A DNA stretch of 62,165 nt, filler included, from Globobulimina sp. (lineage: Eukaryota): the NCBI GenBank assembly GCA_003354225.1. It is 9 parts of 9 records of this genome, joined end to end, with 100 filler letters (N's around TTAATTAATTAA, not from the genome) between each part and the next. Parts side by side here need not be neighbours in the genome. Positions count along the whole stretch, not along the records: positions 1 to 6,849 come from PIVH01000228.1; 8 more parts are not named here. One strand, written 5' to 3'. This document shows, piece by piece, positions 1 to 41,568 of the stretch. The position numbers and the translations under genes were made by a program. The notes beneath the pieces were generated by a model. That model was not told the origin of the DNA. It was given only the letters and a program-made list of their open reading frames with translations, and did not search any database. The stretch's first letter is position 1; every line of letters begins with the position of its first letter.

Positions 1-36
1 CACCCGAAGGCACACAATGTTGTGTGCCTTCGGGTG
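1..36. repeat. 17-bp inverted repeat (hairpin), REP-like; may be truncated by the window start
   Basis: CACCCGAAGGCACACAA (1-17) + TG + TTGTGTGCCTTCGGGTG (20-36) are exact reverse complements. Confidence 0.85.
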
Positions 37-80
37 CCGGGGTATATTTTTCAGGGTTATAAAAAAAGTCCAGCTGTTTC

Positions 81-110
81 TTGACAAAAGGCAAAAAAGC
101 ATTTACTTAT
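81..110 (+). promoter_or_regulatory. Possible sigma70 promoter of the cluster
   Basis: Perfect TTGACA at 81-86, ~105 nt upstream of the first gene; the -10 at 17-nt spacing (TACTTA) is poor. Confidence 0.3.
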
Positions 111-191
111 CCTTTCCTTCAGCTTTTTTAAGTGATACCGCTCAAAAAGCGAAAGATGAGTTTAACGATTATTAAGGGCAAAGGAGATTTT

Positions 192-1457
192 ATGGAATTT
201 AAAAATATACTAATAGTAGATCCGTTCGGTTCCCATACTTATTATTGCGAAGAAATAAAAAATATGGGATATAAACCATTTGCGCTTATTACAGCCAGAA
301 ACATTCCGGATGATTTGATGATCAATTTCGATGAAAAAGATTACGAAAAGGTTTTCTATTCAGACTCTTTTGAGTCCATGATGCCGATGCTTTCGGGCTA
401 TAATTTTCATGCCGTGATTCCTGGAGACCAATTGGCGCTAAGGTTCGTTGATAAACTCGCGCACTCGTTAGGTGTTCCCGGCAATCCCGTCAAGAGTTAT
501 AAAGCAAGAGTTAATAAGGCGGACATGCGGCAGAGGTTAAAGGAAAAAAACATTGATGACGTTGATTTCATACTCTCCGACGATATTGACGTTGTGAAAG
601 AATGGGCCAGAAGGGTTGGATTTCCCGTGATATTGAAGCCTGCAGAATCTGCTGGCGGAAGTCTGGCAGTCAAAAAATGTATGATCAAAGAAGACATAGA
701 TGTTGCCTTTGAGGAAATTGCCTTTATGGGTGGTTATGATGGCAACCTGGATGGTACAGTTTTAGCGGAAGAGTACCTCGACGGGCAAGAGTATATGGTG
801 AACGTAATGCACGATGGTATGGGAGGCAAAAAGCTTGTTGCCATTGCAGGTGTTGAGAAGTTGCAAACAGGTGGGAATGCAAGCATATATAAAAATGTAT
901 ATTCCCTACCACTGGATTCTCCTGAGGTAGTCGAAGCCTATGACTATATAACTGAGATCAATGAAGCGCTTGGTATTAAGATCGGTATAAATGATACGGA
1001 AGTAAAAGTGACTTCAAAGGGAGTCCGTCTAGTGGAGGTCAACAACCGCCTGCCAGGGGGCAAAATGCCGTATGTTATCAACAGGTGCAGCGGCTTTAAC
1101 TGTTTCCAAGAGAATATTAGACTCTTTTGCGGGGAGGGGAGCCAACACAAAGAGATCCATTTCAAAAGACACTATTATATCTGCTGTTTAATCAACGAAA
1201 CTGAAGGCGTGGTGAAAGATATAGAAGGTGGTAATATAATAGAAAAGCTTGAATCCTATGATCGTCAATATTTGAATGTTGGGATCAATCAAAATGCACC
1301 TGTGACTGTCGATTTTATAACGGCTTGGGGGTTGGTGATGCTGGTTCATGAAGATCATTCTCAATTAAAGGCCGATGCAGAGATTGTTCATGACGTTTAT
1401 AGACTTGTGTTTGCGTCTGAATTTCAAGAGAAGGATAACTTAGTTTCTGTTGATTGA
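192..1457 (+). CDS. ATP-grasp amide ligase, L-amino-acid-ligase type (DdaF/NikS/BacD-like)
   Basis: Motifs NKADMRQRL, FPVILKPAESAGG, LAEEYLDGQEYMVN, LVEVNNRLPGG. Start moved from 132 to ATG 192, which follows the RBS AAGGAG at 181-186. Confidence 0.88.
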   Translation: MEFKNILIVDPFGSHTYYCEEIKNMGYKPFALITARNIPDDLMINFDEKDYEKVFYSDSFESMMPMLSGYNFHAVIPGDQLALRFVDKLAHSLGVPGNPVKSYKARVNKADMRQRLKEKNIDDVDFILSDDIDVVKEWARRVGFPVILKPAESAGGSLAVKKCMIKEDIDVAFEEIAFMGGYDGNLDGTVLAEEYLDGQEYMVNVMHDGMGGKKLVAIAGVEKLQTGGNASIYKNVYSLPLDSPEVVEAYDYITEINEALGIKIGINDTEVKVTSKGVRLVEVNNRLPGGKMPYVINRCSGFNCFQENIRLFCGEGSQHKEIHFKRHYYICCLINETEGVVKDIEGGNIIEKLESYDRQYLNVGINQNAPVTVDFITAWGLVMLVHEDHSQLKADAEIVHDVYRLVFASEFQEKDNLVSVD

Positions 1458-1592
1458 TACCGATCTTCTTTCTGTATCCATTCTTTTAAAATAAAAAGGT
1501 GCTTAAATTTGTATCGACTGACATGTCCCATTCTATCGGTATATGTCCCGGACGATATTTCCTTTTGCTATAGACATCTGAGGTTCATTGCC

Positions 1593-2492
1593 ATGATTAA
1601 AAAAACTAATTTATCATTTGATGTAACGTTATTTGCATATGCAGGAATGATAGCGACAGTAATTTCATGGGGAATAATTCCTGTGTTTCAGAAACAACTT
1701 CTCTCTTTATTTACACCAATTGAAGTTTCATTTTCCCGTTTTTTCATTTCATCAATCATCATTACCTGCTGGGTTTTAATGTATAAAAGCAACGAGTTGC
1801 TGATGATTATAAAAAAAGATTATAAGTTGCTTGCTCTGGTGACTATCATCGGTCCTTTGCTTGCCATGACCTTATTTAATTTCGGTATTTCGACAGTACC
1901 TATAGGCATTGCTGGTGTGATATTTACAATGGAAGCTGTGTTTACCTACATACTCGCTGTGTTTTTCAAACAGGAAAAATGGAAGCTGAAGCGTATGTTA
2001 AGTATCCTGGTCGCCCTTTTAGGAATAAGCATGGTTTCGATGTCACGCAGCAACGGTGAAATTCATATGAAAGGTATATTATTGCTGTTAATTTGTGAGT
2101 TTGTATGGGCATTGCATACAGTGCTTTCAAAAAAGATTGTAGACAAGTACACCTCTATTGTTTTGGTTTCCGCCAGTTTTTTAATAAGCTCGCTTTGTCT
2201 TATCCCTCTGCTGTCAGATGGGTATTGGACCAATCTGATTTCCATGGACTACAAGCTCTGGGGCGCTCTCTGGTTTTGTATTCTCCCGGGAACTATTATG
2301 GGATTCACCATTTGGTATTGGTGTCTTAAATATGTTCCCCCTTCATCGCTGGCGGTCTCTCTCTACTTCCTGCCTGTTTTTACGATTATAGGAGGAGTTG
2401 CCGTGTTTGATGAAAAAATTAATGCGGTTATGTCCATTGGGATGTTTATTACATTTGTTGGCATATATTGTGTGAATTTCAAATATAAATAG
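1593..2492 (+). CDS. EamA/DMT-family 10-TM exporter
   Basis: Two EamA halves (ISWG...SRFF; WALHTVLSKK...YFLPVFT...FDEKI), hydrophobic throughout; ATG 1593 preceded by GAGG. Confidence 0.88.
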   Translation: MIKKTNLSFDVTLFAYAGMIATVISWGIIPVFQKQLLSLFTPIEVSFSRFFISSIIITCWVLMYKSNELLMIIKKDYKLLALVTIIGPLLAMTLFNFGISTVPIGIAGVIFTMEAVFTYILAVFFKQEKWKLKRMLSILVALLGISMVSMSRSNGEIHMKGILLLLICEFVWALHTVLSKKIVDKYTSIVLVSASFLISSLCLIPLLSDGYWTNLISMDYKLWGALWFCILPGTIMGFTIWYWCLKYVPPSSLAVSLYFLPVFTIIGGVAVFDEKINAVMSIGMFITFVGIYCVNFKYK

Positions 2493-2616
2493 ATAATTGA
2501 CGTTTATTTTTTCTAATTTTGAGATCATTTTTCTTTTCAAGACTATTCATTCTTGAATTTCTAAGGATAGATCCTTTTCAATTATATTAAACAAAGCAAT
2601 TAAGAAGGAGAAAGGC

Positions 2617-3867
2617 ATGACAAAAGAATTTTATCCATTGGGCCAGGCGCCTCAGATTGGAGTAGTGCCCAAGTTCATGTTAGCGCATTGCATCCGCCAA
2701 AATCGTTTTGGAGAACCGAAGGAGGCTCTACAAATTGAAAAAGTGGAGGTCCCTTCAGATCTTGAGCCTTATGAAGTCCTGGTCTATGTAATGGCCGCCG
2801 GTGTGAATTACAATGTCGCTTGGGCATGCAGCGGTGGCCCTGTGGATGTTATCAATTATTGTCATAAAGGGGATCATCCAGATAATTTTAACATACCCGG
2901 AAGTGATGCAACAGGGATTGTATGGAAAACAGGTTCTGCAGTTACAAAGGTAAAGGTTGGGGACGAGGTCATTATTCATGGATGTCGTTGGGATTATGAT
3001 GATCCCCATATTAAATCGGGCAAAGACCCCGGATTGGCACCAACTCTTCACATGTGGGGATATGAAACCATTTATGGTGGATTGGCACAGTACACTCGGG
3101 TACATGACAATCAGTGCCTGAGGAAACCTAAACACCTACCATGGGCATCGGCTAGTTCTTTGATGGTCAATGGTGCGGCTGCCTATCGAATGCTTCATCA
3201 CTGGTCCGACAACATCGTCCAACCGGGCGATCCTGTATTAATTTGGGGAGGTTCCGGTGGATTGGGGTGTATGGGAATACAGATTTGTAAAGCCGCTGAT
3301 GCTCTTCCTGTAGCTGTTGTTTCTGATCCCGACAAAGAAGACTTTTGTAGAAACCTTGGGGCAGTAGGTGTGATCAATCGAAATGATTTTAACCACTGGG
3401 GAGTGCTTCCCCACTGGAAAAATCGAGAAAAATATCAAGGATGGGTCGCTGAAGCTAGGAGGTTCGGCCGGTCTTTTTGGGAGGCGTTGGGAGAAGCACG
3501 CAATCCTGCTATTGTGTTTGAGCATCCAGGCGAAGCCACCTTGCCAACGTCCTGCTTTCTCGTGGAAATCGGTGGAATGGTTGTTATTTGTGCCGGAACG
3601 TCGGGGTATAATGCCACACTTGATCTCCGATATCACTGGATGCGGCAGAAACGTCTGCAGGGGTCCCATTTTGCAAATAATGAGGAGTGTTCAGCCTTCC
3701 TTGACCTGGTTGATTGCGGAAAGGTAGATCCGTGTCTTTCGCAGGTCTATCCGTTTGAAAATGCGGCGGAAGCGCATCAACTGATGTTTGAGAACAAACA
3801 TCCCCCAGGCAATATGGGTGTATTGGTCAACGCTTCTAATAACAAACAAAAACACTTTAATGATTGA
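2617..3867 (+). CDS. ccr: Crotonyl-CoA carboxylase/reductase (enoyl-CoA carboxylase/reductase)
   Basis: MAAGVNYN, GSDATGIVW, WGYET, VLIWGGSGGLG, VFEHPGEAT, WMRQKRLQGSHFAN; RBS AAGGAG upstream. Confidence 0.95.
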   Translation: MTKEFYPLGQAPQIGVVPKFMLAHCIRQNRFGEPKEALQIEKVEVPSDLEPYEVLVYVMAAGVNYNVAWACSGGPVDVINYCHKGDHPDNFNIPGSDATGIVWKTGSAVTKVKVGDEVIIHGCRWDYDDPHIKSGKDPGLAPTLHMWGYETIYGGLAQYTRVHDNQCLRKPKHLPWASASSLMVNGAAAYRMLHHWSDNIVQPGDPVLIWGGSGGLGCMGIQICKAADALPVAVVSDPDKEDFCRNLGAVGVINRNDFNHWGVLPHWKNREKYQGWVAEARRFGRSFWEALGEARNPAIVFEHPGEATLPTSCFLVEIGGMVVICAGTSGYNATLDLRYHWMRQKRLQGSHFANNEECSAFLDLVDCGKVDPCLSQVYPFENAAEAHQLMFENKHPPGNMGVLVNASNNKQKHFND

Positions 3868-3881
3868 AAATAGGGGAAGCA

Positions 3882-5246
3882 ATGTCTATCGAAGCAAAAG
3901 CAGCAAAGATAAAACAACTTAAAGACCAGCTTGAAGATGAAAACTATCACAAAGTTCTTTTCGAATCCATCATTCGGGAAAATGCATTCAGGAAAGACAA
4001 TGTTTATCGCAGAGAGATTATTGTTCCAGTGGAAACGTGCAAGAGATACGAAGATATAGAGAACTATATAATTCCCAGACTTGATGCCAATTTAAGCGAG
4101 AAGCCGCTTGTCGCTGGTAATTATGAAGACCTCTTCCTGCCTTTTGATTTCGAGAAAAATCAATCCAACGGGAAGATTGCATTTGTCTTACCTACAAACG
4201 GTTTGATTAATGGCTTTTGTCGTTCAATTCTTCCGGCATTTTTCTTGGGGAATGACGTTGTGTTGAGATTTCCCCAAAGAAATAATTCAACGTCTATGAT
4301 TTTTGAGGAAAACTATTTGGATATTTTTAAGGAACATATTCAAATTTCACATGAACCCTCAAGTGTTTTTTTAAAAAAATGCCTGAGAGATCCAGCAATA
4401 GACACGCTTATGATTTACGGAAACAATGTCTGGATAAAAGAGTATTGGGACCAGTTTATTCTTTCTGGAAAGAAAATTATATTCGAAGGGCCTGGAAATG
4501 ACGCAATTATTGTCACTGAGAGTTCAGATCTTCAGCTTGCAGCTGAGGGAACACTCCGAGGCATCTTGAATAATGACGGTCAGTCGTGCACAGCAACGAA
4601 AAGGATCTATGTCCATTCGACGGTTTTAAATGATTACCTTAAGAAATTGGTTCCTTTGGTGAAAAGGATAGAATTCATAAACCCTGAAGAGTCTATTGCT
4701 GGATCGCATCAGTATGTCGTCGGCCCGATTCTATCTGCAAAGATTAGGCAAAACATAGAGACACAGCACCAGGATGCCATGAATTTTTTTGATGAGGAGA
4801 AGGGGGAAGTCAAGCCGGCAGAAATGATTGTCGAACCTTTTACAAAAGAAGATAACTTTTACGGAAAACCGATACTCTACTATAAACCTGCAATTTATCT
4901 CTGCCACGCGAAAATGAAAATGGTTGTAGATGAGACCTTCTATCCCGTCATACCAATTGTTACATATGACACGGAAGACGAGCTTATAAGATATTTGAAT
5001 TACAGCTCTTTTGGTATCAACTGTAATGTGTTTGGCAATTGCAGCGAAAGCACATTTTCAAACTTGTGGAAAATGAATCGTCTTGTTTATAAAGATTCAC
5101 TCGCAACTGATTTGGAAAATTTTGATATGAGTTCCCGTGTGGATGGTGGCCGTAAAGAGTCAAGTTATGTTCTTAAAACAAAAAATAATTCATTTTATAG
5201 GATTGATGGTCCGCGCTGTATCGAATCGGAGGCCATCATTCCATGA
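3882..5246 (+). CDS. Divergent aldehyde dehydrogenase-family protein
   Basis: LPTNG (PWN equivalent), FEGPGND (ELGG equivalent), catalytic GQSCTA, DETFYPVIPI (EIFGP equivalent); N-terminus short and divergent. Confidence 0.8.
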   Translation: MSIEAKAAKIKQLKDQLEDENYHKVLFESIIRENAFRKDNVYRREIIVPVETCKRYEDIENYIIPRLDANLSEKPLVAGNYEDLFLPFDFEKNQSNGKIAFVLPTNGLINGFCRSILPAFFLGNDVVLRFPQRNNSTSMIFEENYLDIFKEHIQISHEPSSVFLKKCLRDPAIDTLMIYGNNVWIKEYWDQFILSGKKIIFEGPGNDAIIVTESSDLQLAAEGTLRGILNNDGQSCTATKRIYVHSTVLNDYLKKLVPLVKRIEFINPEESIAGSHQYVVGPILSAKIRQNIETQHQDAMNFFDEEKGEVKPAEMIVEPFTKEDNFYGKPILYYKPAIYLCHAKMKMVVDETFYPVIPIVTYDTEDELIRYLNYSSFGINCNVFGNCSESTFSNLWKMNRLVYKDSLATDLENFDMSSRVDGGRKESSYVLKTKNNSFYRIDGPRCIESEAIIP

Positions 5247-5334
5247 GAGAACCGGTCACTTCCTTTACGGCGCTGAACCTGAAACCGTTCCTTCTACAGA
5301 TGTTCTTTACCTTATAAGGAGTCTTATTTTTACA

Positions 5335-6648
5335 ATGATTGATATTGTTCGAAAACATAATTATGGAACCTGGATCAAGCAGAAGGATTGGTTGCCCCTG
5401 CACATTGTTGATGCCGAAGGGTGTTTTTTTGTAGATGCAGGTGGTAACAAATATCTTGATTTTGCTTCACAGGCTGCGTGCTCCAACCTTGGCCATAAGA
5501 ATAAGAAAATAATTGGAGCGATTGAAAAACAATCAAATAAATTGTGCTATGTTGCGCCCTGGTTTACTTCTTCTGCCCAGGCCGAGTTGTCCGAACTTCT
5601 GCTTGAAATTTTCCCTGAAGGATTAAGTAAGTTCTTCTATTCGACGTCGGGTACGGAAGCAAATGAAGCTGCTTTTAAGATTGCCCGGATGTTCACGGGT
5701 AAATACAAAATTATTTCCCGCTATAATTCATATCATGGATCAACCGCAGGTTCTATTTCCACAACCGGAGATTTCAGGCGATGGGGCCATGAACCCGTTG
5801 GTACGATGAATGGCATTGTTTTCGGCCCTGAATGCAATTGTTACCGTTGTCCATTTAAGTTGGATTCAGGAAATTGTCAAACTGTATGTGTCGATTACTT
5901 TGACTATATCATCAAAAATGAAAACAATGTGGCCGCTGTTATCATTGAACCCATAGTAGGAACCAACGGTGTACTTGTTCCACCCAAAGATTACCTTCAA
6001 AAGCTTCGTGACATATGTGACAGAAACAACGTTTTGTTGATATTTGATGAAGTAATGAGTGGCTGGTGCAGAACCGGTGAATGGTTTGCCTGTCAGCACT
6101 GGAATGTTTTTCCTGATATATTGACGACTGCCAAAGGAGCAACATCCGCCTATGTCCCCCTTGGTATTACCGCTACAACCCAAAAAATAGCCAATTTTTT
6201 TAATGATGTCTCCTTTGCCCATGGACATACTTATGCAAGCCACCCTCTCATGTTGGCTACTTCCGTTGCCACAATTGAAGAAATGAAGCGTCTTGAGTTG
6301 AGAGAATGCGCCAGAGAAAAGGGCACCTATCTTGGGGAGTGCCTACAGAAGCTGAAAGATAAGCATAAGTCAGTAGGTGATGTTCGGGGAAAAGGTCTTT
6401 TGTGGGCAGTTGAATTGGTTCAGGATCAGAAAAAGAAGACGCCTTTTAATACTGCCAAAGACAAGTTCGAAGGCGACGATATTTTTGTCAGCAGGATTAC
6501 CAAAGAGATGTTCAAAAGAGGGGTGTATATGCTCTCCTGGACGTCTCACTTTATCCTTGCGCCACCTTTAATTATCTCAAGGGATGAGATTGATTTTGCA
6601 ATGAAAGTTCTTGATGAGAGCCTTGCCATTGCAGATAATGCGACTTAA
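5335..6648 (+). CDS. Class III PLP aminotransferase (omega/beta-amino acid, taurine-pyruvate-like)
   Basis: SGTEANEAA, SYHG, IIEPIVG, DEVMSGWCRTG, DILTTAKG (PLP lysine), HGHTY, DVRGKGL. ATG 5335 follows TAAGGAG and avoids overlap with the upstream gene. Confidence 0.92.
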   Translation: MIDIVRKHNYGTWIKQKDWLPLHIVDAEGCFFVDAGGNKYLDFASQAACSNLGHKNKKIIGAIEKQSNKLCYVAPWFTSSAQAELSELLLEIFPEGLSKFFYSTSGTEANEAAFKIARMFTGKYKIISRYNSYHGSTAGSISTTGDFRRWGHEPVGTMNGIVFGPECNCYRCPFKLDSGNCQTVCVDYFDYIIKNENNVAAVIIEPIVGTNGVLVPPKDYLQKLRDICDRNNVLLIFDEVMSGWCRTGEWFACQHWNVFPDILTTAKGATSAYVPLGITATTQKIANFFNDVSFAHGHTYASHPLMLATSVATIEEMKRLELRECAREKGTYLGECLQKLKDKHKSVGDVRGKGLLWAVELVQDQKKKTPFNTAKDKFEGDDIFVSRITKEMFKRGVYMLSWTSHFILAPPLIISRDEIDFAMKVLDESLAIADNAT

Positions 6649-6778
6649 TGAGTGCTTTTAAAAAATAGTATCCTTAACAGTGATAAAAATAAAAATATTC
6701 TAAATATACGGGTATTTAGATAGGAAGACACTTTTTGTTAATAGAAGTATGAAATAGATTCCAAAAGCTGAAATATGT

Positions 6779-6826
6779 ACCCGATCTGGATCGGACACAA
6801 CATGTTGTGTCCGATCCAGATCGGGT
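6779..6826. repeat. Perfect 48-bp palindrome with nested hairpins, REP-like
   Basis: ACCCGATCTGGATCGGACACAACA|TGTTGTGTCCGATCCAGATCGGGT; each arm also contains CCGATC-NN-GATCGG. Confidence 0.88.
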
Positions 6827-6849
6827 CAGAATATTCTTGAAATAAAATA

Positions 6850-6949
6850 NNNNNNNNNNNNNNNNNNNNNNNNNNNNNNNNNNNNNNNNNNNNTTAATTA
6901 ATTAANNNNNNNNNNNNNNNNNNNNNNNNNNNNNNNNNNNNNNNNNNNN
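6850..6949. other. Artificial contig spacer N44-TTAATTAATTAA-N44; identical copies at 13784-13883, 20718-20817, 27644-27743, 34561-34660, 41469-41568, 48376-48475, 55272-55371
   Basis: Identical 100-nt N-padded linker with stops in all six frames; flanking segments fall steadily in length (6834, 6834, 6826, 6817, 6808, 6807, 6796). Confidence 0.98.
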
Positions 6950-9904
6950 CACCAATATCACCACCAGGCAGTGTTTGAAAGCCTTCCTTCAATGCTGGCA
7001 TTGGACTGAATGGACTGTGCTCACTCGTGCATGGCGTAATGGCCATTGGTTTGCGAAGGTTTGCAGTAAACGCAGACAAAGAAGTTTTCCGCATACCGCC
7101 ACCACCAATGCTATAGCCACTATGTGAATGTCCATATGTATGTCGATTATATCCATCCAAAGTATATGAGTTAAACTCGCTGAAAGTGCCGGTTGTCGTA
7201 GAGACTGTAATACCACGTATTCTCCCATTCGTTGATATGAGTGGTCTGTTTAATATCTTTCTAGAATATGTTTTGTAAAATAATTCGTTATCACTGGGTA
7301 TGAAGGCCAATAAGAATGGCAGTTCGGGTAAGGGCTCGAAGCCAACCCTTCGTAAATGAGCGGGCGTTTCAAATATCCAACCTAACCGTCGCAACTTTGT
7401 GATATTTTTGTGTGCTTTGGCTCTTTGTAATCTTTCTGCGGCCTCTTGTTCGTCGGCTTGATACTTCTCATCAAATGTGGGGTATTGTGGAATGAAACGG
7501 ATTTGTATTTCTTGCAAGGATACACCGTATAAATCATATTTCATCATAAATTTTATTAATCGTTCCAATGACCAATCGAAGTTATTGCCGTTGATTAATA
7601 GTTGCTGCGTATTGGGGAATAAACGTGTTATCGTTTCAAATCTGAGTGGTTGATTTTTGACAAACGTCTGTTTGATTGTTTCTATGCCTTGCTTAATATC
7701 ACCAGATTTAAATGGAAACTTATATTTCTTATGGCTTTCATAAAAGAAATGTTGAATTAACATCGGACAACGTTCCATTTTTACCGCCTTAACGTTTTTC
7801 GCTGTTTCAGAAATGGTTAAAAAAAGAGTAGTCAATAAAAACAGATGATATATTATATAAACACATGTACACTTAACCCAACACAATAAATTGATCTCTA
7901 TACTTTGCGAATGCAATGCGTTTATATTTCTTCTTTTTGGTGAAAAACTTATTCCAATCTTTAGTATATTGTAAATATAACAGATATAATATCGATATTT
8001 GTTCATAATCTTCTAATTTATGAAAAGCTAAATCTTGCCGCTTGGATAAATCCTGCATGTCACTGAACGATATCACTGCATATATAACATATCAATAATA
8101 TTACACACACCGTATACGTAGTACGTACCGTTGGATTCTGTATTTATAACATGCAGTGCTTTGAGTATTGACTTTTCAATGGTCGCCGTACTGGCATTCG
8201 GGACATGGTCGCCGTACATACTGTATACATCTGATTTATATAAGTTGACAATTTGAAATGAAGTGTTCATATAAAGTATCTCGCCCTCATCTGGGAAGTT
8301 GCTGATCCACGAGACCCGCAACCCCCTTCTACCAAAAGTAGGATACAATTCGAATATTCTCCCTTTTGTGCCAGCAAACTGTTTGGCAATGTCGAATATT
8401 GTCGTTGTTGAAATTGGTCCCCAATACGTTCCCGAATATGACGGAGTGGAAAAAGCTTCATTCACACCGTGATAGAGCGTGCATGTGATGATATCTTTTG
8501 ATTTTGTACATGCAATAAGCAACAATTCATTCCAATGATAAAATTGTTTCTGTCTCGTTGGTCGATCCGGTTGGTTCTCTCTGTAACATTTGCGATACGC
8601 TCGCTGCAATTCATCAAAGTCTGTGTACAGTTTGAGGCCAACGATCTCCTTCAACGACAGTCCAATCTCTCTGGCTTTGCGTTTCTTGCTATATCCGATG
8701 CAGGATTTTAACAAATCATTCCATTCTTTCTTCTCAATTTTGCAGTACACATTGTTTAATATCTCGGCTTTCGGGTTCTTATACTTTGCGTCTGACTGGA
8801 TTATACTGAAAGGGACACCAAATTGCAACACACGCAACGGGGTATCCGCTGTGGTGGATTGGTACTGTATGGCATAGTAATCAATGGGTACCAATGACGT
8901 TGCTTGATTCACGGCCTCCACATCCAAGTCATCGTCATCTGAATCAGCGTCATGCGCACCTTCATCGTCCATAGCAATCTCGCTCAAGTTCTCGCTGTTT
9001 CTATTGCTATTGTTAGTGGTGGCGGTCATGTAGCTATACCTGCTCTGGTTGCTGTTGCTGCTCTTATGTGTAAAGCCAGGGCCTAGCTCCACTTTTGTCA
9101 TATTTTCATGCGTATTTATATTGCTCGCAGCACTCTGCCCAATATCAATATTCCCTGGAACAGCAAATTTGAATTCCAATGAATTCTGTCTGCGTCTGAT
9201 GGGGGTTTGAATGGTTGGCACAGTTTGCCGCATTCGATAGGATGTTTTTTGTCCAATGTAGCGGTGCTTTCGAGCTGAACTGTTCCGTGATTGCATGTAA
9301 TCTGTACGCATATCACATATGTATATATTATAGAAATGCATATACAAAGATAAGAGTATATAATATACCGTCAGTATGATAAAAATAAACGTGCATTGTT
9401 TGTAATAAGTTCCAAGACTGTTTCCTATAATAATAGTAACCTGCATTTTCAGATTGACCCTTGACAAACAAACATAAGCTATGCAACTTGCACTGTGCAT
9501 AGTTGTGTTGGCCAAGATGATGATGTAAGTAATGTTGCCATAGCTCTGTCATATCAAATTCTAAATTTTTGGAACTTCTCTTTAAATTTGTCATTTTTTC
9601 TACGATTACATCAACTTCCCAATCTTCGCTGATTTGTATTTTCTGTCATGATGTACAGTATGTTACGTATATACGGTATGTTTAAGAAATGAAATGGAAT
9701 TTATAGGAACTAAACAGAATAGTCAATTTTAAAATATTCGCAATATTTTTTGAGCCTTATCCAGCATTCACATTTGTGTTTTGGGCATCGTCTGTTGTTT
9801 TTGGATAGTGTGTGATTGGGCGTTTGCAGATTCGAACTGTTGTTTTTGTTTTTAGACGATTGCTTCTTTTTGGTGTATGATTTCACTTTTTTCAACGCTG
9901 CCAT
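6950..9904 (-). CDS. Five-exon protein with an ADP-ribosyltransferase-like domain; 3' end truncated by the contig end
   Basis: ORFs 9710-9904, 9328-9594, 8073-9515, 7873-8076 and 6894-8006 join in frame through GT-AG introns (~9643-9715, 9302-9440, 8076-8128, 7802-7877). Core motifs LKLYTD, LYHG, GPISTT, WISNFPDEGEIL. Confidence 0.7.
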
Positions 9905-11157: not shown

Positions 11158-13533
11158 ATGCTGAGGTGTTCGACAAGATCAGTATTAAAAAAAAAACCTT
11201 TTCGAACAGCAAAAAAAATCAGTACTTATCGGAGAGCCCTAATGTTCAGATTAAAACCCAAAACGGTAAAGAATAGCAATTGTGAAGCATACCAATTGCT
11301 TCGTGGATTGTATCAACAGAACAAAGCTAATGTTGCCAATAAAGACAGGGTTGTCATGGACGCCATGTCCATTTATGATAAAATAAACGAACCGAAATGT
11401 GATTATGTTATCAATGCATTAGTTAATTTATGTTATAATTTCCGATGCTATAAAACAATTCCTTCAACACCCGTCATTTGGAGAGATATTGAATTGTTAC
11501 CAGACACGAATAAAAAAAAACTCTCCTATGCATTGCTATTAATATCTTGTATCAAATCAAATAACATTGCAAAATCATTGAAAACGTTGGAATTGATTGC
11601 AAATTCTCAATACAGTCTGCAAATAAATGAATCAGTGATAATAAAATTAATCAAACTATTAAATATTACCAAACATTTGGATTATATTTCACTATTAATG
11701 TCAGACACTGTTATACCAAACAGCATTGGAATAAAGACATCGTTGATTGCTCAATATTCAAAACACAAAGGAAATAGAAACAATTTAAACAAAGCTATAA
11801 ATATATTCGTTCAAACTAAGTACGAGCAACGAGATACTATCATGAATGGTGCGATGATGACTGCTTTGATTCATAACGATTGTCATAAAGATGCGTTGAA
11901 TATTTACAATGGAATGGACGCAGCTGATCAAGATGCAATTTGCCATGCTTTGGCTGTAAAATGTTGTACAGCGCTGAATGAAACAAAACAAATTCAACAA
12001 ATTGAGGATTCATTGCAGAATTATAATGCTCAACAAATAATCCCAGTGCAGACATCACTGATTGATCACTATGGACATTGCGGAGATATTGAGAAAGCAG
12101 CACGTATCTTCCACTCTGTCACTGACGGTTTGCAGAATATAATCACTGTGAATTCTATGCTGACAGCGTATATTAATTGTTTCTGTTATAAAGAAGCATT
12201 ACTTTTGTATGATAAGTATGATAATTTAGACAGAGATTCAATTTCGCATTCATTGGCCATCAAAGCTTGCATCTCTGTTCGCGATTTTGTAAAAGGAAAT
12301 GGCATTATAAATGAATTTAATTTGCATGTTGCACAGAATCAACATATTCAACTTAAGCATACACTCATTAATTTTTATGGGCATTGCAGCAACATTGACA
12401 ATGCAGAACATATATTTAAATCTATTGGAAATAGCAAAGACTCCGTGAGTATCAATGCTATGATGACTGCATACATCAACAATCTGCAATACGTTGATGC
12501 GTTGAAGCTATATTATGATACAAATAATTTGAATTTTATTGATAACGTTTCTCATTCACTGGCAATCAAATGTTGCGCCAATATTGGCAATTTTAATAAA
12601 GGCAAAAAGATTCATTCCATCCTGAAAAAGGAAAATAAAATGAAGGACGATAATAATCATCACATCAAAACAGCGTTGATTGATTTATATGGCCGCTGTC
12701 ATGATGTCAATAATGCATTGCATATTTTTAGCTCGATTGGAAAAGATGTTGCACATAAAAGTACAGCATGTTGTAATTCAATGATGAATATTTATTGTGT
12801 TAACCAAAAATATGATGAATGTCTGCAATTGTTTGATGATATCGATATAAAAAATAGGAATTCCATATCGTATACCATTGTATTTACCGCCTGCGCCCAT
12901 GATAACAAAGTTGAGCTTGGAAATAATATCTATCATCAACTGCTGCAGCGACGTGATTGTGATCTCATATTGAAAGAACTGTCGACTTTGAGCAGTTTAA
13001 TTAATATGTTTGGCAAATTTGGAGATTTAAAGAAATGTGAAGAGATATTTGATATTGTTAAAAGCGCGCATTGTAAAGATATGTATTTGAATAACATCGG
13101 AATTTGGAATGTTATGATTCAAGCTCTTGGCGTAAATGGTGATGCTGTAAATGCACTGACATTGTTCAATGAAATGAAGGAGAAAACAAATATTAAAGTT
13201 GATTCGAAAGGATATGTTACAATATTCAATGCATTGAGTCATGGACAAAATGTAAAAGAAGCCAAATATATATGGTATAATGACGTGTTAGATGCAAATA
13301 TAAAATGTAATAAGTTGGTGACTTCATCGTTTGTTGATTGTTTAGCTCGCAATGGATATTTATTTGAAGCGTATGATATTATTTATCAATATGAGAAAAT
13401 AAAAGATAGTGAGCTGTGTCAAGAAATGTGGTTATCTCTGTTTAATGGGTGTAAAATTCATAAAAATACAATGTTTATGTACTGTGTTGTTGACCAAATG
13501 AAAAATAGATTTCATGACTTGAGCTGTTTATGA
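11158..13533 (+). CDS. Pentatricopeptide repeat protein, PLS-like, with a C-terminal E1-like motif
   Basis: About 16 tandem 31-38-aa repeats in triplets (TSLIDHYGHCGDIEKAARIF / NSMLTAY..EAL.LY / HSLAIKAC); ends WLSLFNGCKIHKN; basic N-terminus resembles a mitochondrial presequence. Confidence 0.9.
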   Translation: MLRCSTRSVLKKKPFRTAKKISTYRRALMFRLKPKTVKNSNCEAYQLLRGLYQQNKANVANKDRVVMDAMSIYDKINEPKCDYVINALVNLCYNFRCYKTIPSTPVIWRDIELLPDTNKKKLSYALLLISCIKSNNIAKSLKTLELIANSQYSLQINESVIIKLIKLLNITKHLDYISLLMSDTVIPNSIGIKTSLIAQYSKHKGNRNNLNKAINIFVQTKYEQRDTIMNGAMMTALIHNDCHKDALNIYNGMDAADQDAICHALAVKCCTALNETKQIQQIEDSLQNYNAQQIIPVQTSLIDHYGHCGDIEKAARIFHSVTDGLQNIITVNSMLTAYINCFCYKEALLLYDKYDNLDRDSISHSLAIKACISVRDFVKGNGIINEFNLHVAQNQHIQLKHTLINFYGHCSNIDNAEHIFKSIGNSKDSVSINAMMTAYINNLQYVDALKLYYDTNNLNFIDNVSHSLAIKCCANIGNFNKGKKIHSILKKENKMKDDNNHHIKTALIDLYGRCHDVNNALHIFSSIGKDVAHKSTACCNSMMNIYCVNQKYDECLQLFDDIDIKNRNSISYTIVFTACAHDNKVELGNNIYHQLLQRRDCDLILKELSTLSSLINMFGKFGDLKKCEEIFDIVKSAHCKDMYLNNIGIWNVMIQALGVNGDAVNALTLFNEMKEKTNIKVDSKGYVTIFNALSHGQNVKEAKYIWYNDVLDANIKCNKLVTSSFVDCLARNGYLFEAYDIIYQYEKIKDSELCQEMWLSLFNGCKIHKNTMFMYCVVDQMKNRFHDLSCL

Positions 13534-14282
13534 TGACGTTGTACTGTATTGTTCTCCCAGCAATTGTCATACCAGTCAACGTTTATGATTTGTAGGATTT
13601 GGGCGGAGTTTTTCAGTCAATTAATTGTATGCAATCGCCTTCATTTTGCATCCACACAGCAGGTATGTACTTATCCTGTATTATTTTATATGCTGTACCA
13701 TAATGTTTTTCATTTATCCTGAAACTAAGTGAGAAATGATCAAAATCCAATATCATATCAACGACTGTGTTGTTACAACACTTNNNNNNNNNNNNNNNNN
13801 NNNNNNNNNNNNNNNNNNNNNNNNNNNTTAATTAATTAANNNNNNNNNNNNNNNNNNNNNNNNNNNNNNNNNNNNNNNNNNNNAATTGTAAGGAAAAGTT
13901 GGTCCAGTAATATTTGGTCATATTGGTCATAGCGTCTGCATCTTATCCGATACTCCACTGAATACCATATAAGCAATATGCTATCCGTAATAAATGATCA
14001 CAATTTTTGATTATTTCCTTGGTATTCTTATCTTTGTTGTGTTTGTTTTAAAATCAAGTTCCATAACTTTGAGTTTAAAATCAATTTTCGAAAATCAATA
14101 ATATGAATTTAAATCAATAAATGAAACACAAAAAACAGGTTAAAAAACAAACATTGATCACATACTAGGATTCGAATACTAGGTCAACTTCGAATACTAG
14201 GTTGAAAACCACTACAGCTAACCCAAAAACCTTGCCAATCACAAAAGAAGTGTTTAGAAGTTTAAGCCTAAAAAGTCAATTG

Positions 14283-20717: not shown

Positions 20718-20817
20718 NNNNNNNNNNNNNNNNNNNNNNNNNNNNNNNNNNNNNNNNNNNNTTAATTAATTAANNNNNNNNNNNNNNNNNNNNNNNNNNN
20801 NNNNNNNNNNNNNNNNN

Positions 20818-21515: not shown

Positions 21516-24059
21516 TCATTGGTTGTCATTGTGATTGTTGTTTGATGAGGGAGTATTTTGTGATGTGTCTGGTTGAGAGTTTTGTGATGTTTGCTTTGTT
21601 GGTCTTTGTTTTTGAGTGGGAACAATTTTCGGTCCGCCACCATAAACTTCAATTAGAAATGTCCAAATATTGCTTGGTATCATTAAATAATCCGTATCTT
21701 TGATTAATTCATCTTTTAACGTATGATTACCGGCATGAATATGTATATTATCAATACGTTGGGGAATTATATTAGTTTTGTTATGAACAAAATTTCTCCA
21801 TTGATTGGCCCATTTCATGTTTAAGGCACAGTCCTGAGGACAGCCATCGTCCTCCAACCTGCGAATCTCAGTTTTTTCATATTCACGCCGTCCATTTAAT
21901 TCTTCCACTTTGCAATCTGTGCATTCCAATGACTTGTCAGATAATTCCCAGGGCATTGTCTCTTTCTCTTTGTCTTTGTCTTTATCGGCATCTGCCATTA
22001 CAATGTCTTGCTCTTTCTCATATACTAACATTTTGGCATTATATTGCAATCCATACTTTTTGCTTAATTCTAGCCAGGTATTATATGCTATTTTAATGGA
22101 ACAATATTTACTTCGATCGTGATTGCGCGACAATGGAAAGCCATGAAAACAACTTAGCCATAAATTATCAATGGGTCCCGGTCGGCTGAAGGCCTGGACT
22201 CTGTGTAGCCAGTATCGAGATAATAATACATGCTTCTTCTTGTTTACATTGTTATTGTGGATTAATAAGGCATTGGATATGGATTTGATGGACGACCTGT
22301 CCGCTTTCCGGCGAATATAGAATAAAATGTATGCTTGCTGTTCAGCTAATTTCTCCCTTGAAATCTGTTCAACTCTCAAATCATCAAATTTATACCATTT
22401 GGCAGTGGCGGGATGTTTAGCAAACGATATATAATGACCTCCGCCGGTACTCCCCATATGTTTGATAATTGAGCATAAATCATATTTTGCGCCGATGTTT
22501 TGTTTATCGTTTCGATGTTTTGGATGAATGTATTGTTTTAAATCCAAGGCGTCGATCGGGAATGAAACATGAGTCGATACCTTGGCAGAGCCTCTCCAAA
22601 AGGAGTCATGGCTAAATCGTTTGATTTGAATCATTAATATTTCGGGCAATTTGGAGATTAATAATGTTTTCTTGGCTTCTTGTTTGGATTTACATTTATC
22701 ACAATGATATTTTTCGGTGTTCAATAAATCCTCGCTGGTACAGTATGAATGCAAACAGAGGCCCAATGGAATGGATTGACTCTGTAAGCCGACAAAGGTG
22801 AAAACCGATGATATCCATCCCTTTGTTGGCAGTGGTTTTGCGCCGTTGATGTTCCTCTCCGCAACGGCCCGATCAATGGCTTCTTGCTTTGGTCTTTCCA
22901 CTTGAATGTTGGTGATAGAATCAATTTTTTGTGATTTTGTGTTACATTTTGAACATTGTACCGATGATATGATCTCTCCTGAAAATAAATCATATATTAT
23001 TGAGGTCTCTAGATATTTTTCTTTTTCTTTTTCTTTTTCTTTTTTGGTCTTTTTCTTTTCTTCGCTGTCATTGTTGTTGTCATTGTTGTCATTGTTGGGA
23101 TGATTGATTGGTATTTTATACTTATACTCATCATGCAAGAATTGTAGAAGACAGGTTAAAAATTCGTGGGCGTCCTGCTGTCCATAACCACGAAATTGCG
23201 GATATTTATACATTATACATCGTAACATGTCTCGGGGAATAACATTCCTATGCTTTCCTTCCCAAATTTCATAGGTTAATTTTACAAATTCATCCACTAA
23301 ACGCAATCTATTATATTTTTTAACATAACATATCTCCGGCAAAGTAAATAAATAAACGACAGCTGGACAATGTAATAATGCCTAAATAGAAAATAAAATA
23401 AAAATATATAAATATGTGCAAGGATCAAAACTTGAAGTGATGCATTCATAAAGCATGTATTTCCCAGATTTTGCATGCCACACATTCCTCCATTCATACT
23501 TTCATGCCAAATGGGTGTCGATTTTAGTATCGATTGAGCATTTTTCCATTTCTATGTAAATTAATCAATGACGTGGCTGCATAAAATAAAATAAAAATAT
23601 TTTATTAACATTTGGATCGAGAGATGTTAAACTTCTTCGGTTATTTTTGTATTTTCTATTATTTCTATGTCCATTGTTATTATTATTATTATTGTTATAT
23701 GAAGCAGATGAAGATGAAGACGGTGATGATTCACTATTATTATTATTATCATTCTCATTATCACCAAAATATACAATCGGTTGGTCACATTTATAACACC
23801 ATAAATGTTTTGGTGATTCCATGTTTACACAAATAAAATGTAACGATTCTTGTGCATGTTTCAATGCATGTTTTTTTTCATAGCGACCACATCCAATATG
23901 ATAACATTGCAAACAACACCAAACATTGCGTGCCGTCCGACAAACAGTACATCGGCCTTTTACTTTGGCTGCTTGTTTTGCAATGCGTGTGATTGAATCT
24001 TTGATTTCATCGTTGACCACAAAATGACTACAGCCCAGCGCAGTTTCTTCCATTGCCAT
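21516..24059 (-). CDS. Ubiquitin-specific protease (zf-UBP + USP + DUSP; USP20/33-like), multi-exon
   Basis: zf-UBP (CLQCYHIGCGR...HALKH...WCYKCD), Cys box GMQNLGNTCFMNASLQ, QQDAHEFL, His box GGGHYISF, WYKFDD, C-terminal DUSP (W...YGGGP); GT-AG introns between ORFs. Confidence 0.92.
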
Positions 24060-24958: not shown

Positions 24959-27523
24959 ATGCTGAAAACAAAACAAAAAGCAACTTCAAGACGTCTGAAA
25001 CCTGGTCCCTTTTCCTTAAATCAGCCAACCAGGACAAAAGCGCAAGTGAAATTGAATAGATTGGGGCAACAATTAAAGAAAAAACTGAGGCATGGGACGA
25101 CAAAGGATATTGTAGAGTTTAGATTACTTTCTATATATTGAACAGTATTGAACATGTATATGACAATTAAATATACACTTCTTACAGTTCGGTAACAACA
25201 GAGATTGGCTGGATTGGATTGTGTATTTTATTTCTGTGTCTCGTATCAGTTTGTTATATTATTATTATAATAATTTACAGTGGAAATAATGAGCAAACGC
25301 CAAACCTACACACAATGCATAATCGTGCTCACCCGGATCATATGTCCAATCAACACGACATAAATTCACATCTAAATGATGATGGTAACTCTGTTGATCA
25401 TGCACTTCATATCGATCCAGAACACTGGCCACATCATCTAAGTGCATCAAGAGAAGTTAATTATAATTAAATTCTAATATAAATAATACATATACAAATT
25501 ACATATAATTATGATGTGTTGCCACCAAAAGCAAAAGCAAAAGGAAAAGGAAAAGGAGAGAGACTTTGGTCGTGATGTGGATGGATTGGAAGATAGATTT
25601 AAATTTGACCGACGAAAAAAACGAAATGGAGAAGAGTTGGAAGGCCGAATAGCAAATGACAATGATAATGATATTGATTTTGATAAACTTGATCCTGAAA
25701 TACGAGAGAAAATGATGAATGAAATGGGATTACATGAAAGGAATCGACATCGAAAAGACAGACGCAAGAGAAGGGAGAGAAGAGACGAAGACTGGAGAGA
25801 GAGGAAAGAGAGGAAAGTGAGAAAAGAGGGAGAGAAAGAGATAAAAAGTGAGAGAGAGGCAGAGGCAGAGGTTGCTGAGGTGAGTGGTGATGAGGTGAGT
25901 AATTGGGAGAGCATTTGGAGTGTGATAGGTGGCATTGATATGGGCTCATTATCCAAAGCCAAAGAGAGTGAACCATCCGATATATTATCGGAGAAATGCT
26001 ATCGCATAAAATCTGCATTTTTGCATGCCTGGCATGGTTATGCCAAGTACGCCTTAGGCCATGATGAGATCCATCCCGTTTCCGATTTGCCCGGTGATAG
26101 CTGGGGCGGCTTAGGTGCCACACTCATCGATGCCTTGGATACCATGATGATAATGGGCATAAAAGACGAGTTCAAGCAAGCGAGAGAAAAATTAAACGAC
26201 ATCCATTTTGATATTGATTTACAAGTCTCATTCTTTGAAACCACCATCAGACATCTTGGCGGCTTAATAGGTAGCTACGAAATGTCGCAAATATTGGAGC
26301 CGACAGATGAATTTATTTTGGCTCAGGCAATATCATTAGGCGACCATCTGTTGCCCGCATTTGACACCGCCAAAGGTATACCAAAATCAATGGTGAATTT
26401 GAAAAGTGGGGAGATTAAAAATTATGGATGGACCAAAGATAGATCTGTACTCAGTGAGATTGGCTCAAATCAATTAGAATTTTATGCTTTAAGTAAATAT
26501 ACAAATGATGGCAAATATTATGATAAATCCGCATTAATATACAAGTTATTAAATAGTGCTCAAAATGAGAATGTTGCCTCCGGCAATGGAGAGTTTGGTT
26601 TATTTTCGCGTTTAATTGATACGGAGGAAGCAAGCTTTCCTAAAAACGAAAAAGTGTATAGTTTGGGTGGAATGAGCGACTCTTTTTATGAGTACACTTT
26701 GAAGCTATGGATATTGACCAATTACAACGATAAATTAGCCATCAAATTATATATGGAATCAATCACTGCAGCAAATGAGAAATTGTTGCGAATGATCTAT
26801 GACAAAAAACGTAGAGAGGAGGCATATTTTTTTTATGGCGAACAATGGTACACCAAATTCCGTGGTAAAATGGAAGAATTGCAATGTTTTATGCCCGGCG
26901 TATTGGCCTTAGGTTCATATCATGCAATGTTACTCTCTCAAGAAACGGATAGGAAGTTAACAAAATATGAGAAACAATTAATTGAAGAAAGAGAGAAACA
27001 TTTGAAGTTAGCCCACGTATTATTGGAATCGTGTGTTGCTTTATATAGTGAGATGCCAACTGGTTTGGCGCCAGAAACAATTGAATTTAGTGACAATGAA
27101 TGGAAACCAAAAGAAATGAGATATCAATTACGTCCGGAAACCGTTGAGTCATTATTTATATTATATTCATTGACTGGCAATCAAGAGTATCGAGAGTGGG
27201 CATGGAATATATTCCAATCCATTGAGAAACACTGTAAAACTGACGTTGCCTTCTCTGGCATTGAAGATGTAACTGAAATTCCAGCAAAACAAGACAATCA
27301 AATGCAATCTTATGTTATGGCTGAAACATTTAAATATTTATTCTTAATATTTGATGATTATGCGGCTTCATTATTACCATTAAATCAATACGTATTTAAC
27401 ACAGAAGCACATCCAATACGAATCATAAAAGATATTACAAGGTTTGGTTGGTATAAACCCAATGAAATGTCGAATGACAATGATGATTTCGATCAAACAC
27501 AATATGACGAAATAGACGAATGA
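24959..27523 (+). CDS. GH47 alpha-1,2-mannosidase (type II membrane), multi-exon 5' region
   Basis: AFLHAWHGY, TLIDALDT, FETTIRHLGGL, DSFYEY, LRPETVES, AETFKY, FNTEAHP in ORF 25511-27523; upstream short exons with a TM segment are inferred. Confidence 0.9.
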
Positions 27524-28142
27524 AATCAATGAATACTGATATAAAAAGGATTCTATTTTTGTTTAAAAATTAATGTCATCGCTAGATTCTTCTTTTGCGC
27601 GAGTTTGTTATTCAAACACTAGCAACAAAAAAAACTTTAACGGNNNNNNNNNNNNNNNNNNNNNNNNNNNNNNNNNNNNNNNNNNNNTTAATTAATTAAN
27701 NNNNNNNNNNNNNNNNNNNNNNNNNNNNNNNNNNNNNNNNNNNATATTAAAAATAGATACTCACAGAAAGTATAAATATATTAATGGGGAAATGGGAAAG
27801 AATTGAACTTTCCTTCAATGGACCACTCATCTCAACACGTATTGGTCTGACTCTTTCGGGTAAAATCCAGGAACAAGTGTCAGAGGGCTTTATTCCTAGA
27901 ATTAACAATTTGATTTATAATTAGATATTCAGATAAATAATCTGAAAATAAGAATTATGAATCAATCGCTTCCCGTCTGTTGAATCCCTGTGTGTTGAGT
28001 GAATTTGTGATCTTTATTTATAATTTCATAAAATTTACGTTTCTCAAAATGTAAAACAGATTATTATTTGGAAAATAATAATTTGTTTGTTGTTAATGTT
28101 AAATCAAGCACTTTGAATGATAATTGTCCCTGATGTGTCAAT

Positions 28143-31219: not shown

Positions 31220-31277
31220 CTGTATAAAAGAAACAGTTTAATAAAGTTTTAGAAACGTTTCGGATTTGTGACAATAG

Positions 31278-41238: not shown

Positions 41239-41568
41239 GTATTTATTATATATTATAATCATAATATTAAATCAATAAATCAGATTTTTGTTTTTTGCAA
41301 CTGACCAAATTGTCTAACTTGTACAAATTAGAATTTTTGTGATGGTTATATTAATTACTAAAATTATTTTGCAATTGGCATAGTTTATTTTGTTGTTACT
41401 GGATTCGCAGTTATCTTTTGTCGTTGTGAAAGAAAGTGAAAAACTTTGTTTTTAGAAACACGATACCGNNNNNNNNNNNNNNNNNNNNNNNNNNNNNNNN
41501 NNNNNNNNNNNNTTAATTAATTAANNNNNNNNNNNNNNNNNNNNNNNNNNNNNNNNNNNNNNNNNNNN

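Follow-up and report, generated by a model that had tools for sequence, protein, structure and literature searches.

What might an operon make that places a crotonyl-CoA carboxylase/reductase (Ccr) beside an aldehyde dehydrogenase (ALDH), an aminotransferase, an ATP-grasp ligase and a transporter? The question is raised by positions 192 to 6648 of a 62,165-nt stretch of DNA, here called the window, from an assembly of the protist Globobulimina sp. (GCA_003354225.1). An earlier interpretation made from the DNA alone (the sequence-only reading) had proposed that the Ccr product is turned into a branched beta2-amino acid, which is then ligated and exported as a small peptide. ORF calling with Pfam and NCBIfam searches found five open reading frames (ORFs) of the ATP-grasp, EamA, Ccr, Aldedh and Aminotran_3 families, all on the plus strand, and these alone occupy the first contig of the window (contig 1, positions 1-6849; 6,849 bp).

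192-1457, plus strand: ATP-grasp ligase of the L-amino-acid-ligase type, 421 aa (alternative start 132)
1593-2492, plus strand: EamA/DMT-family transporter, putative exporter, 299 aa (alternative start 1509)
2617-3867, plus strand: Ccr, 416 aa (TIGR01751)
3882-5246, plus strand: divergent short ALDH, 454 aa (alternative start 3864; Pfam Aldedh)
5335-6648, plus strand: class-III (omega) aminotransferase, 437 aa (alternative start 5137; Aminotran_3)

The genes contain no introns and are separated, in operon order, by gaps of 135, 124, 14 and 88 bp, the 14 bp lying between the Ccr stop codon and the ALDH start. Purine-rich Shine-Dalgarno-like sites were found before each likely start codon (AAAGGAG before ATG 192, GAGG before ATG 1593, AAGGAG before ATG 2617, AGGGGAA before ATG 3882 and AAGGAG 13 nt before ATG 5335), and ATG 3882 matches the start of the ALDH homologues in the alignment. 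The five co-oriented genes with ribosome-binding sites described by the sequence-only reading are therefore present as described.

The operon probably serves to make and export a small metabolite with an amide linkage, derived from an unusual beta-amino acid or a branched diacid, and we tentatively propose a specific route. The protein families, the operon structure, the conservation of three of the genes as a unit and the rarity of the ALDH are shown by sequence comparison, and from these we infer every substrate and product named here. Ccr would convert crotonyl-CoA, CO2 and NADPH to (2S)-ethylmalonyl-CoA, and the ALDH would bring this C5 skeleton to the aldehyde level as ethylmalonate semialdehyde. 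The aminotransferase would then yield 2-(aminomethyl)butanoate, a beta2-amino acid that the ATP-grasp ligase would join to a second amino acid, and the EamA protein would export the ligated product. Each of the five genes has a role in this pathway, which also accounts for the gene order, for the Ccr being inserted together with the exporter and for the family context of the aminotransferase. In its most specific form, short ALDHs of a rare clade, their catalytic triad complete, would reduce alkylmalonyl-CoA to semialdehydes, so that a Ccr would feed 2-(aminomethyl)butanoate into an exported dipeptide independently of a polyketide synthase (PKS); this form we consider doubtful.

The part of the operon that recurs elsewhere was found by a pattern scan with the ALDH alignment, which covered one genome per species for 185,579 species. 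Among the 32 loci returned, a close ALDH (58% identity) was present in one only (L001), a Desulfobacterales metagenome-assembled genome (MAG; JAAELO010000058.1). There, the ATP-grasp gene (47%) is followed after 215 bp by the ALDH (57%) and after a further 8 bp by the aminotransferase (68.5%), and contig 1 differs from this arrangement in having the EamA and Ccr genes, as one inserted block, immediately before the ALDH. A second MAG carries an adjoining ATP-grasp/ALDH pair with >90% identity to the L001 pair, indicating that it is of the same lineage. The ATP-grasp/ALDH/aminotransferase trio thus forms a conserved module. In the Desulfobacterales MAG, the Ccr-less trio would follow the same route from malonyl- or methylmalonyl-CoA.

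The ALDH subfamily is, by database search, very rare. Among 5.8 billion clustered proteins it has only two clusters of close relatives, both at 58% identity: one is P0121, from a JGI contig, and the other joins P0122 and P0167, which come from two MAGs. The next match is at 30%. A HMMER search over 1.84 billion representatives gave one ALDH with >50% identity, the next being at 31%, and only 12 sequences at E <= 1e-30. When metagenomes were scanned with an alignment of three ALDH sequences, 389 pattern matches resulted, none of which was confirmed. Look-alikes in the ESM Atlas are exclusively unnamed short-ALDH clusters, commonest in Thermodesulfobacteriota. In the wider short-ALDH clade, an N-terminal AMP-binding domain is fused to the ALDH in 4 of the 12 members scanned (P0184, P0193, P0197 and P0203), and two Thermoanaerobaculia loci (L007 and L008) place the ALDH beside a stand-alone AMP-binding enzyme and a nonribosomal peptide synthetase (NRPS), with a DegT-type aminotransferase in L007. 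The clade is thus coupled repeatedly to carboxylate activation, which fits an order of activation followed by reduction and an order of oxidation followed by activation alike. The AMP-binding-ALDH fusions carry the FEGPG motif and the full triad and have no carrier domain; a full-text literature search found no paper on such a didomain.

The aminotransferase provides the context for the proposed beta2-amino acid. It matches Pfam Aminotran_3 with 317 bits over profile positions 7-401 of 403 and the PRK06062 subfamily with 418 bits, below the cutoff of 472, and its best match in the PDB is taurine:2-oxoglutarate aminotransferase (6jix, 262 bits). Taurine is an isostere of beta-alanine. The aminotransferase and the Ccr were surveyed in 401 genomes sampled from the phylum of the Desulfobacterales MAG. 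Aminotransferase matches at E <= 1e-80 occur in 34 of them; the best is the MAG itself (68%), and the next three, at 50-51% identity, belong to the same PRK06062 subfamily (376-388 bits). In all three of these loci, the gene lies alongside PreA, a dihydropyrimidinase, a CN-hydrolase and a uracil-type permease, with scores of 509 bits for the dihydropyrimidine dehydrogenase PreA (cutoff 335) and 619 bits for dihydropyrimidinase (cutoff 393). In one locus (L057), the gene just upstream of the aminotransferase encodes a methylmalonate-semialdehyde dehydrogenase of the CoA-acylating kind (536 bits, cutoff 448.5).

The transamination step of reductive pyrimidine catabolism yields malonate semialdehyde from beta-alanine, or methylmalonate semialdehyde from beta-aminoisobutyrate. 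From their gene context, the 50-51% relatives appear to be beta-alanine/beta-aminoisobutyrate aminotransferases, which suggests that they handle just the kind of 3-amino-2-alkylpropanoate/alkylmalonate-semialdehyde pair postulated by the sequence-only reading. The carbon skeleton of ethylmalonate semialdehyde is that of the Ccr product. The semialdehyde-to-beta2-amino-acid step proposed earlier therefore fits the surroundings of the relatives in 3/3 loci, with the qualification that the PRK06062 score of the operon enzyme stays under its cutoff. In another locus (L056, 7968-15658), an aldehyde:ferredoxin oxidoreductase directly follows the aminotransferase within a pyrimidine-catabolism cluster, which could represent malonate-semialdehyde oxidation in an anaerobic form.

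The ligation and export steps are suggested by the first two genes. The ATP-grasp protein matches Pfam ATP-grasp_4 with 45 bits (cutoff 27) and NCBIfam PRK07206 with 242 bits (below the cutoff of 302), and among PDB structures it is closest to 30vh, an 'L-amino acid ligase' (118 bits across residues 5-406). It had been likened to ligases of the DdaF/BacD type; the relationship to L-amino-acid ligases stands, but its scores against the DdaF and BacD equivalogs (109 bits, cutoff 840; 20.6 bits, cutoff 850) are so far under the cutoffs that it is a relative and not a member of either family. Homologues number 33 at E < 1e-20, several of them actinomycete, with a best identity of 53%. A metagenome scan with the ATP-grasp alignment gave 10 loci, and the neighbourhoods of relatives at 33-43% identity were inspected. 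In 5/5 loci scanned, the relative lies in a small cluster of amino-acid-modifying enzymes, and 4 of the 5 contain transporter genes (MFS, OPT or EamA). In one (L033), the genes beside the ligase relative are those of an AMP-binding/carrier protein, of RidA and of an EPSP-synthase-like enzyme; two others (L034 and L035) combine RidA, two EPSP-synthase/MurA-like genes, asparagine synthase, the ATP-grasp gene and an MFS or OPT transporter; and L039 (4361-11355) contains a HalD-type halogenase, a glyoxalase, DUF3291, a haem-oxygenase-like oxidase, ATP-grasp, a cation antiporter, EamA and LysR.

These loci have the appearance of short pathways in which an unusual amino acid is formed and then ligated without an NRPS, which supports the part of the sequence-only reading concerned with a ligated, exported small peptide. 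The same scheme is described for mangotoxin, tabtoxin and phaseolotoxin (PMC13725569). None of the 10 metagenome loci contains a homologue of the other four operon genes (tblastn, 1e-5). We also observed that L034 (2893-12343) and L035 (2142-9499) form a recurring cluster, a candidate enolpyruvyl-type amino-acid antimetabolite pathway, and that L037 and L041 share the ORF layout of L039, another ligase-type amino-acid pathway.

The second gene encodes a putative exporter with two EamA repeats, seen as two stretches of the Pfam EamA match (134 bits); its score against the NCBIfam carboxylate/amino acid/amine transporter 2A78 is 78 bits, below the cutoff of 230. EamA proteins are mostly exporters. 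The operon EamA and the EamA of L039 show no significant similarity to each other.

The Ccr is predicted to be a canonical carboxylating enzyme from its TIGR01751 score, its solved relatives and its CO2-pocket residues, in agreement with what had been claimed for it. It passes the TIGR01751 equivalog with 509.2 bits (cutoff 378.55), and among solved structures AntE (4y0k) is its best match with 451 bits, with 425 bits for the M. extorquens Ccr (4gi2). Residues N66, Y149, E150 and H351 align with Asn81, Phe170, Glu171 and His365 of the K. setae Ccr (6na3), which we take to be its CO2-pocket residues, and AntE and the M. extorquens enzyme likewise have a Tyr aligned with Phe170. Phe352 lies at the position of AntE Val350, where Phe is presumably the residue of crotonyl-specific, small-substrate enzymes. 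The physiological direction of Ccr is carboxylation. Homologues run into thousands in the protein database search, with a best identity of 70%, and a plasmid collection searched with blastn in distant mode gave a sole match of 165 bp inside the Ccr gene (~70% identity, two Tritonibacter records).

The weakest link of the proposed pathway is the second step, because the conversion of a thioester to an aldehyde by an ALDH with a full triad would be unprecedented. The ALDH matches Pfam Aldedh with 128 bits over profile positions 125-405 only and retains Asn106, Glu202 (FEGPG) and Cys236 (GQSC); the general-base Glu noted by the sequence-only reading is indeed there. The triad is at least 90% conserved in a 40-sequence clade alignment and is present in all 11 clade sequences inspected, AMP-binding fusions among them. 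An AF2 model of the ALDH (pLDDT 94.7) gave Foldseek neighbours that are, among those listed, all irreversible ALDHs (TM 0.69-0.74), the top PDB matches being betaine-aldehyde, acetaldehyde, 2-aminomuconate-semialdehyde, GapN and succinate-semialdehyde dehydrogenases. According to a review, the catalytic triad is universal in irreversible ALDHs, the Glu is lost in CoA-acylating methylmalonate-semialdehyde dehydrogenases (ALDH6), and only the Cys is kept in ALDH20, LuxC and ALDH18 (gamma-glutamyl-phosphate reductases), so that every known reductive or reversible enzyme of the superfamily lacks the Glu or has the Cys alone (PMC12041015). With Glu202 and Asn106 both kept, the operon ALDH does not have the signature of these reductive and CoA-acylating groups (ALDH6, ALDH20, LuxC and ALDH18). 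No match to the LuxC Pfam model was found for it at E up to 1, while two close homologues score 21.5 and 23.6 bits (cutoff 21). Its NCBIfam scores are weak, the best being sulfoacetaldehyde dehydrogenase SafD with 91 bits (cutoff 700); piperideine-6-carboxylate (P6C) dehydrogenase gives 80 bits (cutoff 730). On present knowledge, the intact triad, the fold neighbours and the generalisation drawn in PMC12041015 predict that this ALDH should oxidise an aldehyde and not reduce a thioester, which weakens the earlier proposal of an alkylmalonyl-CoA-to-semialdehyde step.

The distribution of the genes adds to the points that weigh against the proposed pathway. The L001 trio has no EamA and no Ccr between its genes, no Ccr was found in the 7.7-Mb MAG with the operon Ccr as the query, and the five-gene set was found nowhere beyond contig 1 in the databases searched. 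The synteny expected for the five genes therefore did not appear; the trio alone recurs, without Ccr, in one Desulfobacterales MAG lineage. In the survey of 401 genomes, 7 contained a Ccr match at E <= 1e-100, and the nearest (69% identity) is flanked by phosphodiesterase-like and heterodisulfide-reductase-like genes, with the other four operon genes not nearby. The contigs with the best Ccr homologues also match none of those with ALDH or ATP-grasp homologues in length, a weak indication that the genes are not linked.

The ALDH and the Ccr-less trio fit a rival, oxidative logic, which had been raised earlier as a caveat (amine to aldehyde to acid). Here, the aminotransferase would convert a primary amine (a beta-amino acid, a diamine or a basic amino acid) to an aldehyde, which the ALDH would irreversibly oxidise to a carboxylate; the ATP-grasp ligase would activate the carboxylate as an acyl phosphate and couple it to an amine, the EamA protein would export the amide, and the Ccr would be accessory, as a second source of alkylmalonyl groups or as a passenger. 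We regard this as somewhat unlikely but as a serious alternative, given the intact, clade-conserved ALDH triad with its irreversible fold neighbours, to which the generalisation in PMC12041015 applies, and given that the trio exists without Ccr in L001. The AMP-binding-ALDH fusions suit an acid that is made and then activated equally well, and pairs of aminotransferase and ALDH, as in L057, are the norm in amine catabolism. The oxidative logic, however, leaves the Ccr without a role even though it is inserted together with the exporter and lies 14 bp upstream of the ALDH, and it gives no source for the amine. With a beta-alanine-type aminotransferase, moreover, it would lead to a malonate-type diacid, which is an unusual substrate for an L-amino-acid ligase.

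Whether the operon is complete depends on the ends of contig 1, where the following features were found.

1-36, no strand: GC-rich palindromic hairpin of 17 pairs followed by a T-rich stretch, in the left multi-copy repeat (script)
72-117, plus strand: core of a dispersed repeat with TTGACA (81-86), a possible operon promoter region (loose ends, sequence)
6779-6826, no strand: perfect palindrome of 24 pairs downstream of the last gene, in a second multi-copy repeat at the right end (script)

Contigs from three sequencing runs of one sample (X1, X2 and X3) were aligned to positions 1-6849 for depth. A search of sequencing runs gave X1 as the one run containing the contig, and probably its source, and listed no RNA run with it. 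In X1, the operon body (230-6641) has a depth of 7.9-9.1, while the summed depth is 446 in the left-end bin (1-229) and 155 in the right-end bin (6642-6849); the ends are 17-56 times deeper than the body (regions 1-117 and 6715-6849). Both ends are also present in X3 (summed depth 190 left and 27 right). The body is not among the contigs of X2 or X3, and its absence from X3 is uninformative because the depth expected there, scaled from the repeat depths, is only ~2-3. Many differing sequences diverge before ~72 and behind ~114-117 (X1, X2 and X3) and around 6715-6811. The excess depth together with these divergent loose ends indicates that contig 1 is bounded on both sides by dispersed multi-copy repeats, at which the assembly broke. 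A terminator-like scan gave a match at 28-42 plus a T-run; the TTGACA box lies ~105 bp upstream of the first start codon, and a sigma-70 scan found no full -35/-10 match in 72-117. Rfam searches of contig 1 gave nothing near gathering scores and no riboswitch, the matches of the palindromes being spurious ones to microRNA models far below gathering scores. Neither end repeat turned up in the remaining eight contigs of the window, and the repeat core had 0 matches among viral contigs. Both end repeats contain a GC-rich palindrome, and the central loops are alike; they may be a family of terminator- and promoter-bearing palindromic elements of the source bacterium.

On a 6.8-kb contig bounded by repeats, the absence of neighbouring PKS or ethylmalonyl-CoA-pathway genes cannot be argued from. 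The earlier statement that no PKS, NRPS or ethylmalonyl-CoA-pathway genes lie on the contig is literally true and yet empty, since the contig consists of the five genes only. This bears on the possibility that contig 1 is a fragment of a larger locus, in which the Ccr feeds ethylmalonyl-CoA to a PKS or to other enzymes beyond the repeats and the other four genes tailor or export the product or form a separate pathway. Neighbours would indeed be invisible where the assembly broke at both repeats, and AntE, a PKS extender-unit enzyme, is the best solved relative of the Ccr. The flanking hairpins and the upstream repeat with its -35-like box, however, suggest a closed transcription unit, Phe352 occupies the AntE Val350 position, presumably as in crotonyl-specific enzymes, and no positive pointer to a PKS was found, so that we consider a larger locus improbable.

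A catabolic or salvage operon, in which beta-amino acids or taurine-like amines are imported by the EamA protein, transaminated and oxidised while the ATP-grasp enzyme and the Ccr channel carbon into CoA-ester metabolism, seems to us quite improbable. The relatives of the aminotransferase are catabolic by context, its best solved relative is a taurine aminotransferase, and SafD is the best NCBIfam match of the ALDH, though its score is 91 bits where the cutoff is 700. Against this, the family context of the ATP-grasp ligase is biosynthetic, EamA proteins are generally known as exporters, and the Ccr reaction runs towards carboxylation.

The window around contig 1 is an artificial construct. 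A script scan showed that its 62 kb comprise nine separate contigs of ~6.8 kb, ordered by decreasing length, joined by eight identical linkers (N44-TTAATTAATTAA-N44) spaced ~6.9 kb apart. The linkers, all artificial and without strand, are as follows.

6850-6949: linker joining contig 1 to an unrelated contig
13784-13883: linker
20718-20817: linker
27644-27743: linker
34561-34660: linker
41469-41568: linker
48376-48475: linker
55272-55371: linker

The contigs are unrelated and artificially joined, so gene-neighbourhood arguments across the linkers are void, and the single contig pictured by the sequence-only reading gives way to nine, with the operon confined to 6,849 bp. Windows of joined short contigs can mislead arguments from absence, and this case is an example. 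Contig 1 looks bacterial: its Shine-Dalgarno-like sites, co-oriented genes, lack of introns and GC content of 40.6% (34.8% in the remainder of the window) suggest a transcription unit of an uncultured bacterium, an associate or a contaminant in the protist assembly. That the operon was instead horizontally acquired and now lies in the protist's own nuclear genome is very improbable: contig 1 is filed under a eukaryote assembly and other contigs of the window bear eukaryote-type domains, but the bacterial operon structure with its Shine-Dalgarno-like sites, gaps of 14-135 bp and lack of introns, the differing GC content of a contig that is separate from the rest, the end repeats not found in the other eight contigs and the lack of any junction with eukaryotic sequence all speak against it.

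In the other eight contigs (6950-62165), a domain search found long ORFs with eukaryote-type domains that are unrelated to the operon.

11158-13533: PPR protein, eukaryote-type domain
21516-23342: UCH and DUSP ORF, eukaryote-type domains
25511-27523: glycoside hydrolase 47 (GH47) mannosidase, eukaryote-type domain
29481-31274: reverse transcriptase/RNase H (RT/RNase H)
41513-42649: PH-domain ORF, eukaryote-type domain
43729-45363: LmjF365940-type deaminase
55429-58593: TPR ORF
60496-62163: Ank and SAM ORF, eukaryote-type domains

Several large ORFs of these contigs have no Pfam match, for example 8073-9515. A Legionella-like origin, prompted by the PPR protein, was dropped, as the window consists of joined contigs with eukaryote-type genes.

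If the Ccr product truly enters an amino-acid/ligase pathway, as we tentatively propose, Ccr chemistry would gain a use outside its roles in central carbon metabolism and in supplying polyketide extender units, and beta2-amino acids, which serve as building blocks, would be accessible through a simple enzymatic route. The ALDH clade would then be an exception to the absence of the catalytic Glu from reductive ALDHs and would represent a new type of thioester reductase. Even if the logic is oxidative, the operon marks out a very rare and so far unstudied subfamily of ALDHs linked to ATP-grasp ligases. The candidate product would be a small bioactive amide made by a bacterium associated with a marine protist.

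In comparison with known systems, the operon resembles several in part. The Ccr is like those of the ethylmalonyl-CoA pathway and of PKS extender supply (4gi2 and 4y0k) in passing the TIGR01751 cutoff, in its scores of 425-451 bits and in its aligned CO2-pocket residues, but it lies within a ligase/aminotransferase operon on a 6.8-kb contig with no gene of that pathway or of a PKS. Pyrimidine catabolism shares with it an aminotransferase of the PRK06062 subfamily (50-51% identity) and an adjoining partner of the ALDH superfamily, there a methylmalonate-semialdehyde dehydrogenase. In our operon, however, the partner is a rare short ALDH with the full triad instead of a Glu-less CoA-acylating ALDH6 (TIGR01722), and a ligase, an exporter and a Ccr stand in place of pyrimidine-degrading genes.

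The beta-lactam clusters combine lysine epsilon-aminotransferase (lat), piperideine-6-carboxylate dehydrogenase (pcd) and ACV synthetase. Their likeness to the oxidative alternative is that a carboxylate arises through the successive action of a class-III aminotransferase and an irreversible ALDH and is then activated by a ligating enzyme. The differences are that the operon ALDH reaches only 80 of the 730 bits of the P6C dehydrogenase model, that the context is one of beta-amino acids and not lysine, and that the ligating enzyme is an ATP-grasp protein and not an NRPS. The nearest overall resemblance in layout is to the antimetabolite-peptide clusters with L-amino-acid ligases, namely dapdiamide (DdaF), bacilysin (BacD), mangotoxin (MboC/MboD) and rhizocticin (RhiM/RhiC), which likewise have a stand-alone ATP-grasp ligase, a few building-block enzymes and a transporter and no NRPS. 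None of them has been reported with a Ccr, a short-clade ALDH or a class-III aminotransferase, and our full-text literature search found no paper that combines Ccr, ATP-grasp, aminotransferase and aldehyde dehydrogenase. The single paper found to bring together ethylmalonyl-CoA, a semialdehyde, a beta-amino acid and a transaminase is a review of beta-alanine production. Ligase-type small-peptide clusters are thus already known, while the building-block enzymes of this operon, with no counterpart in the literature searched, are what is new here.

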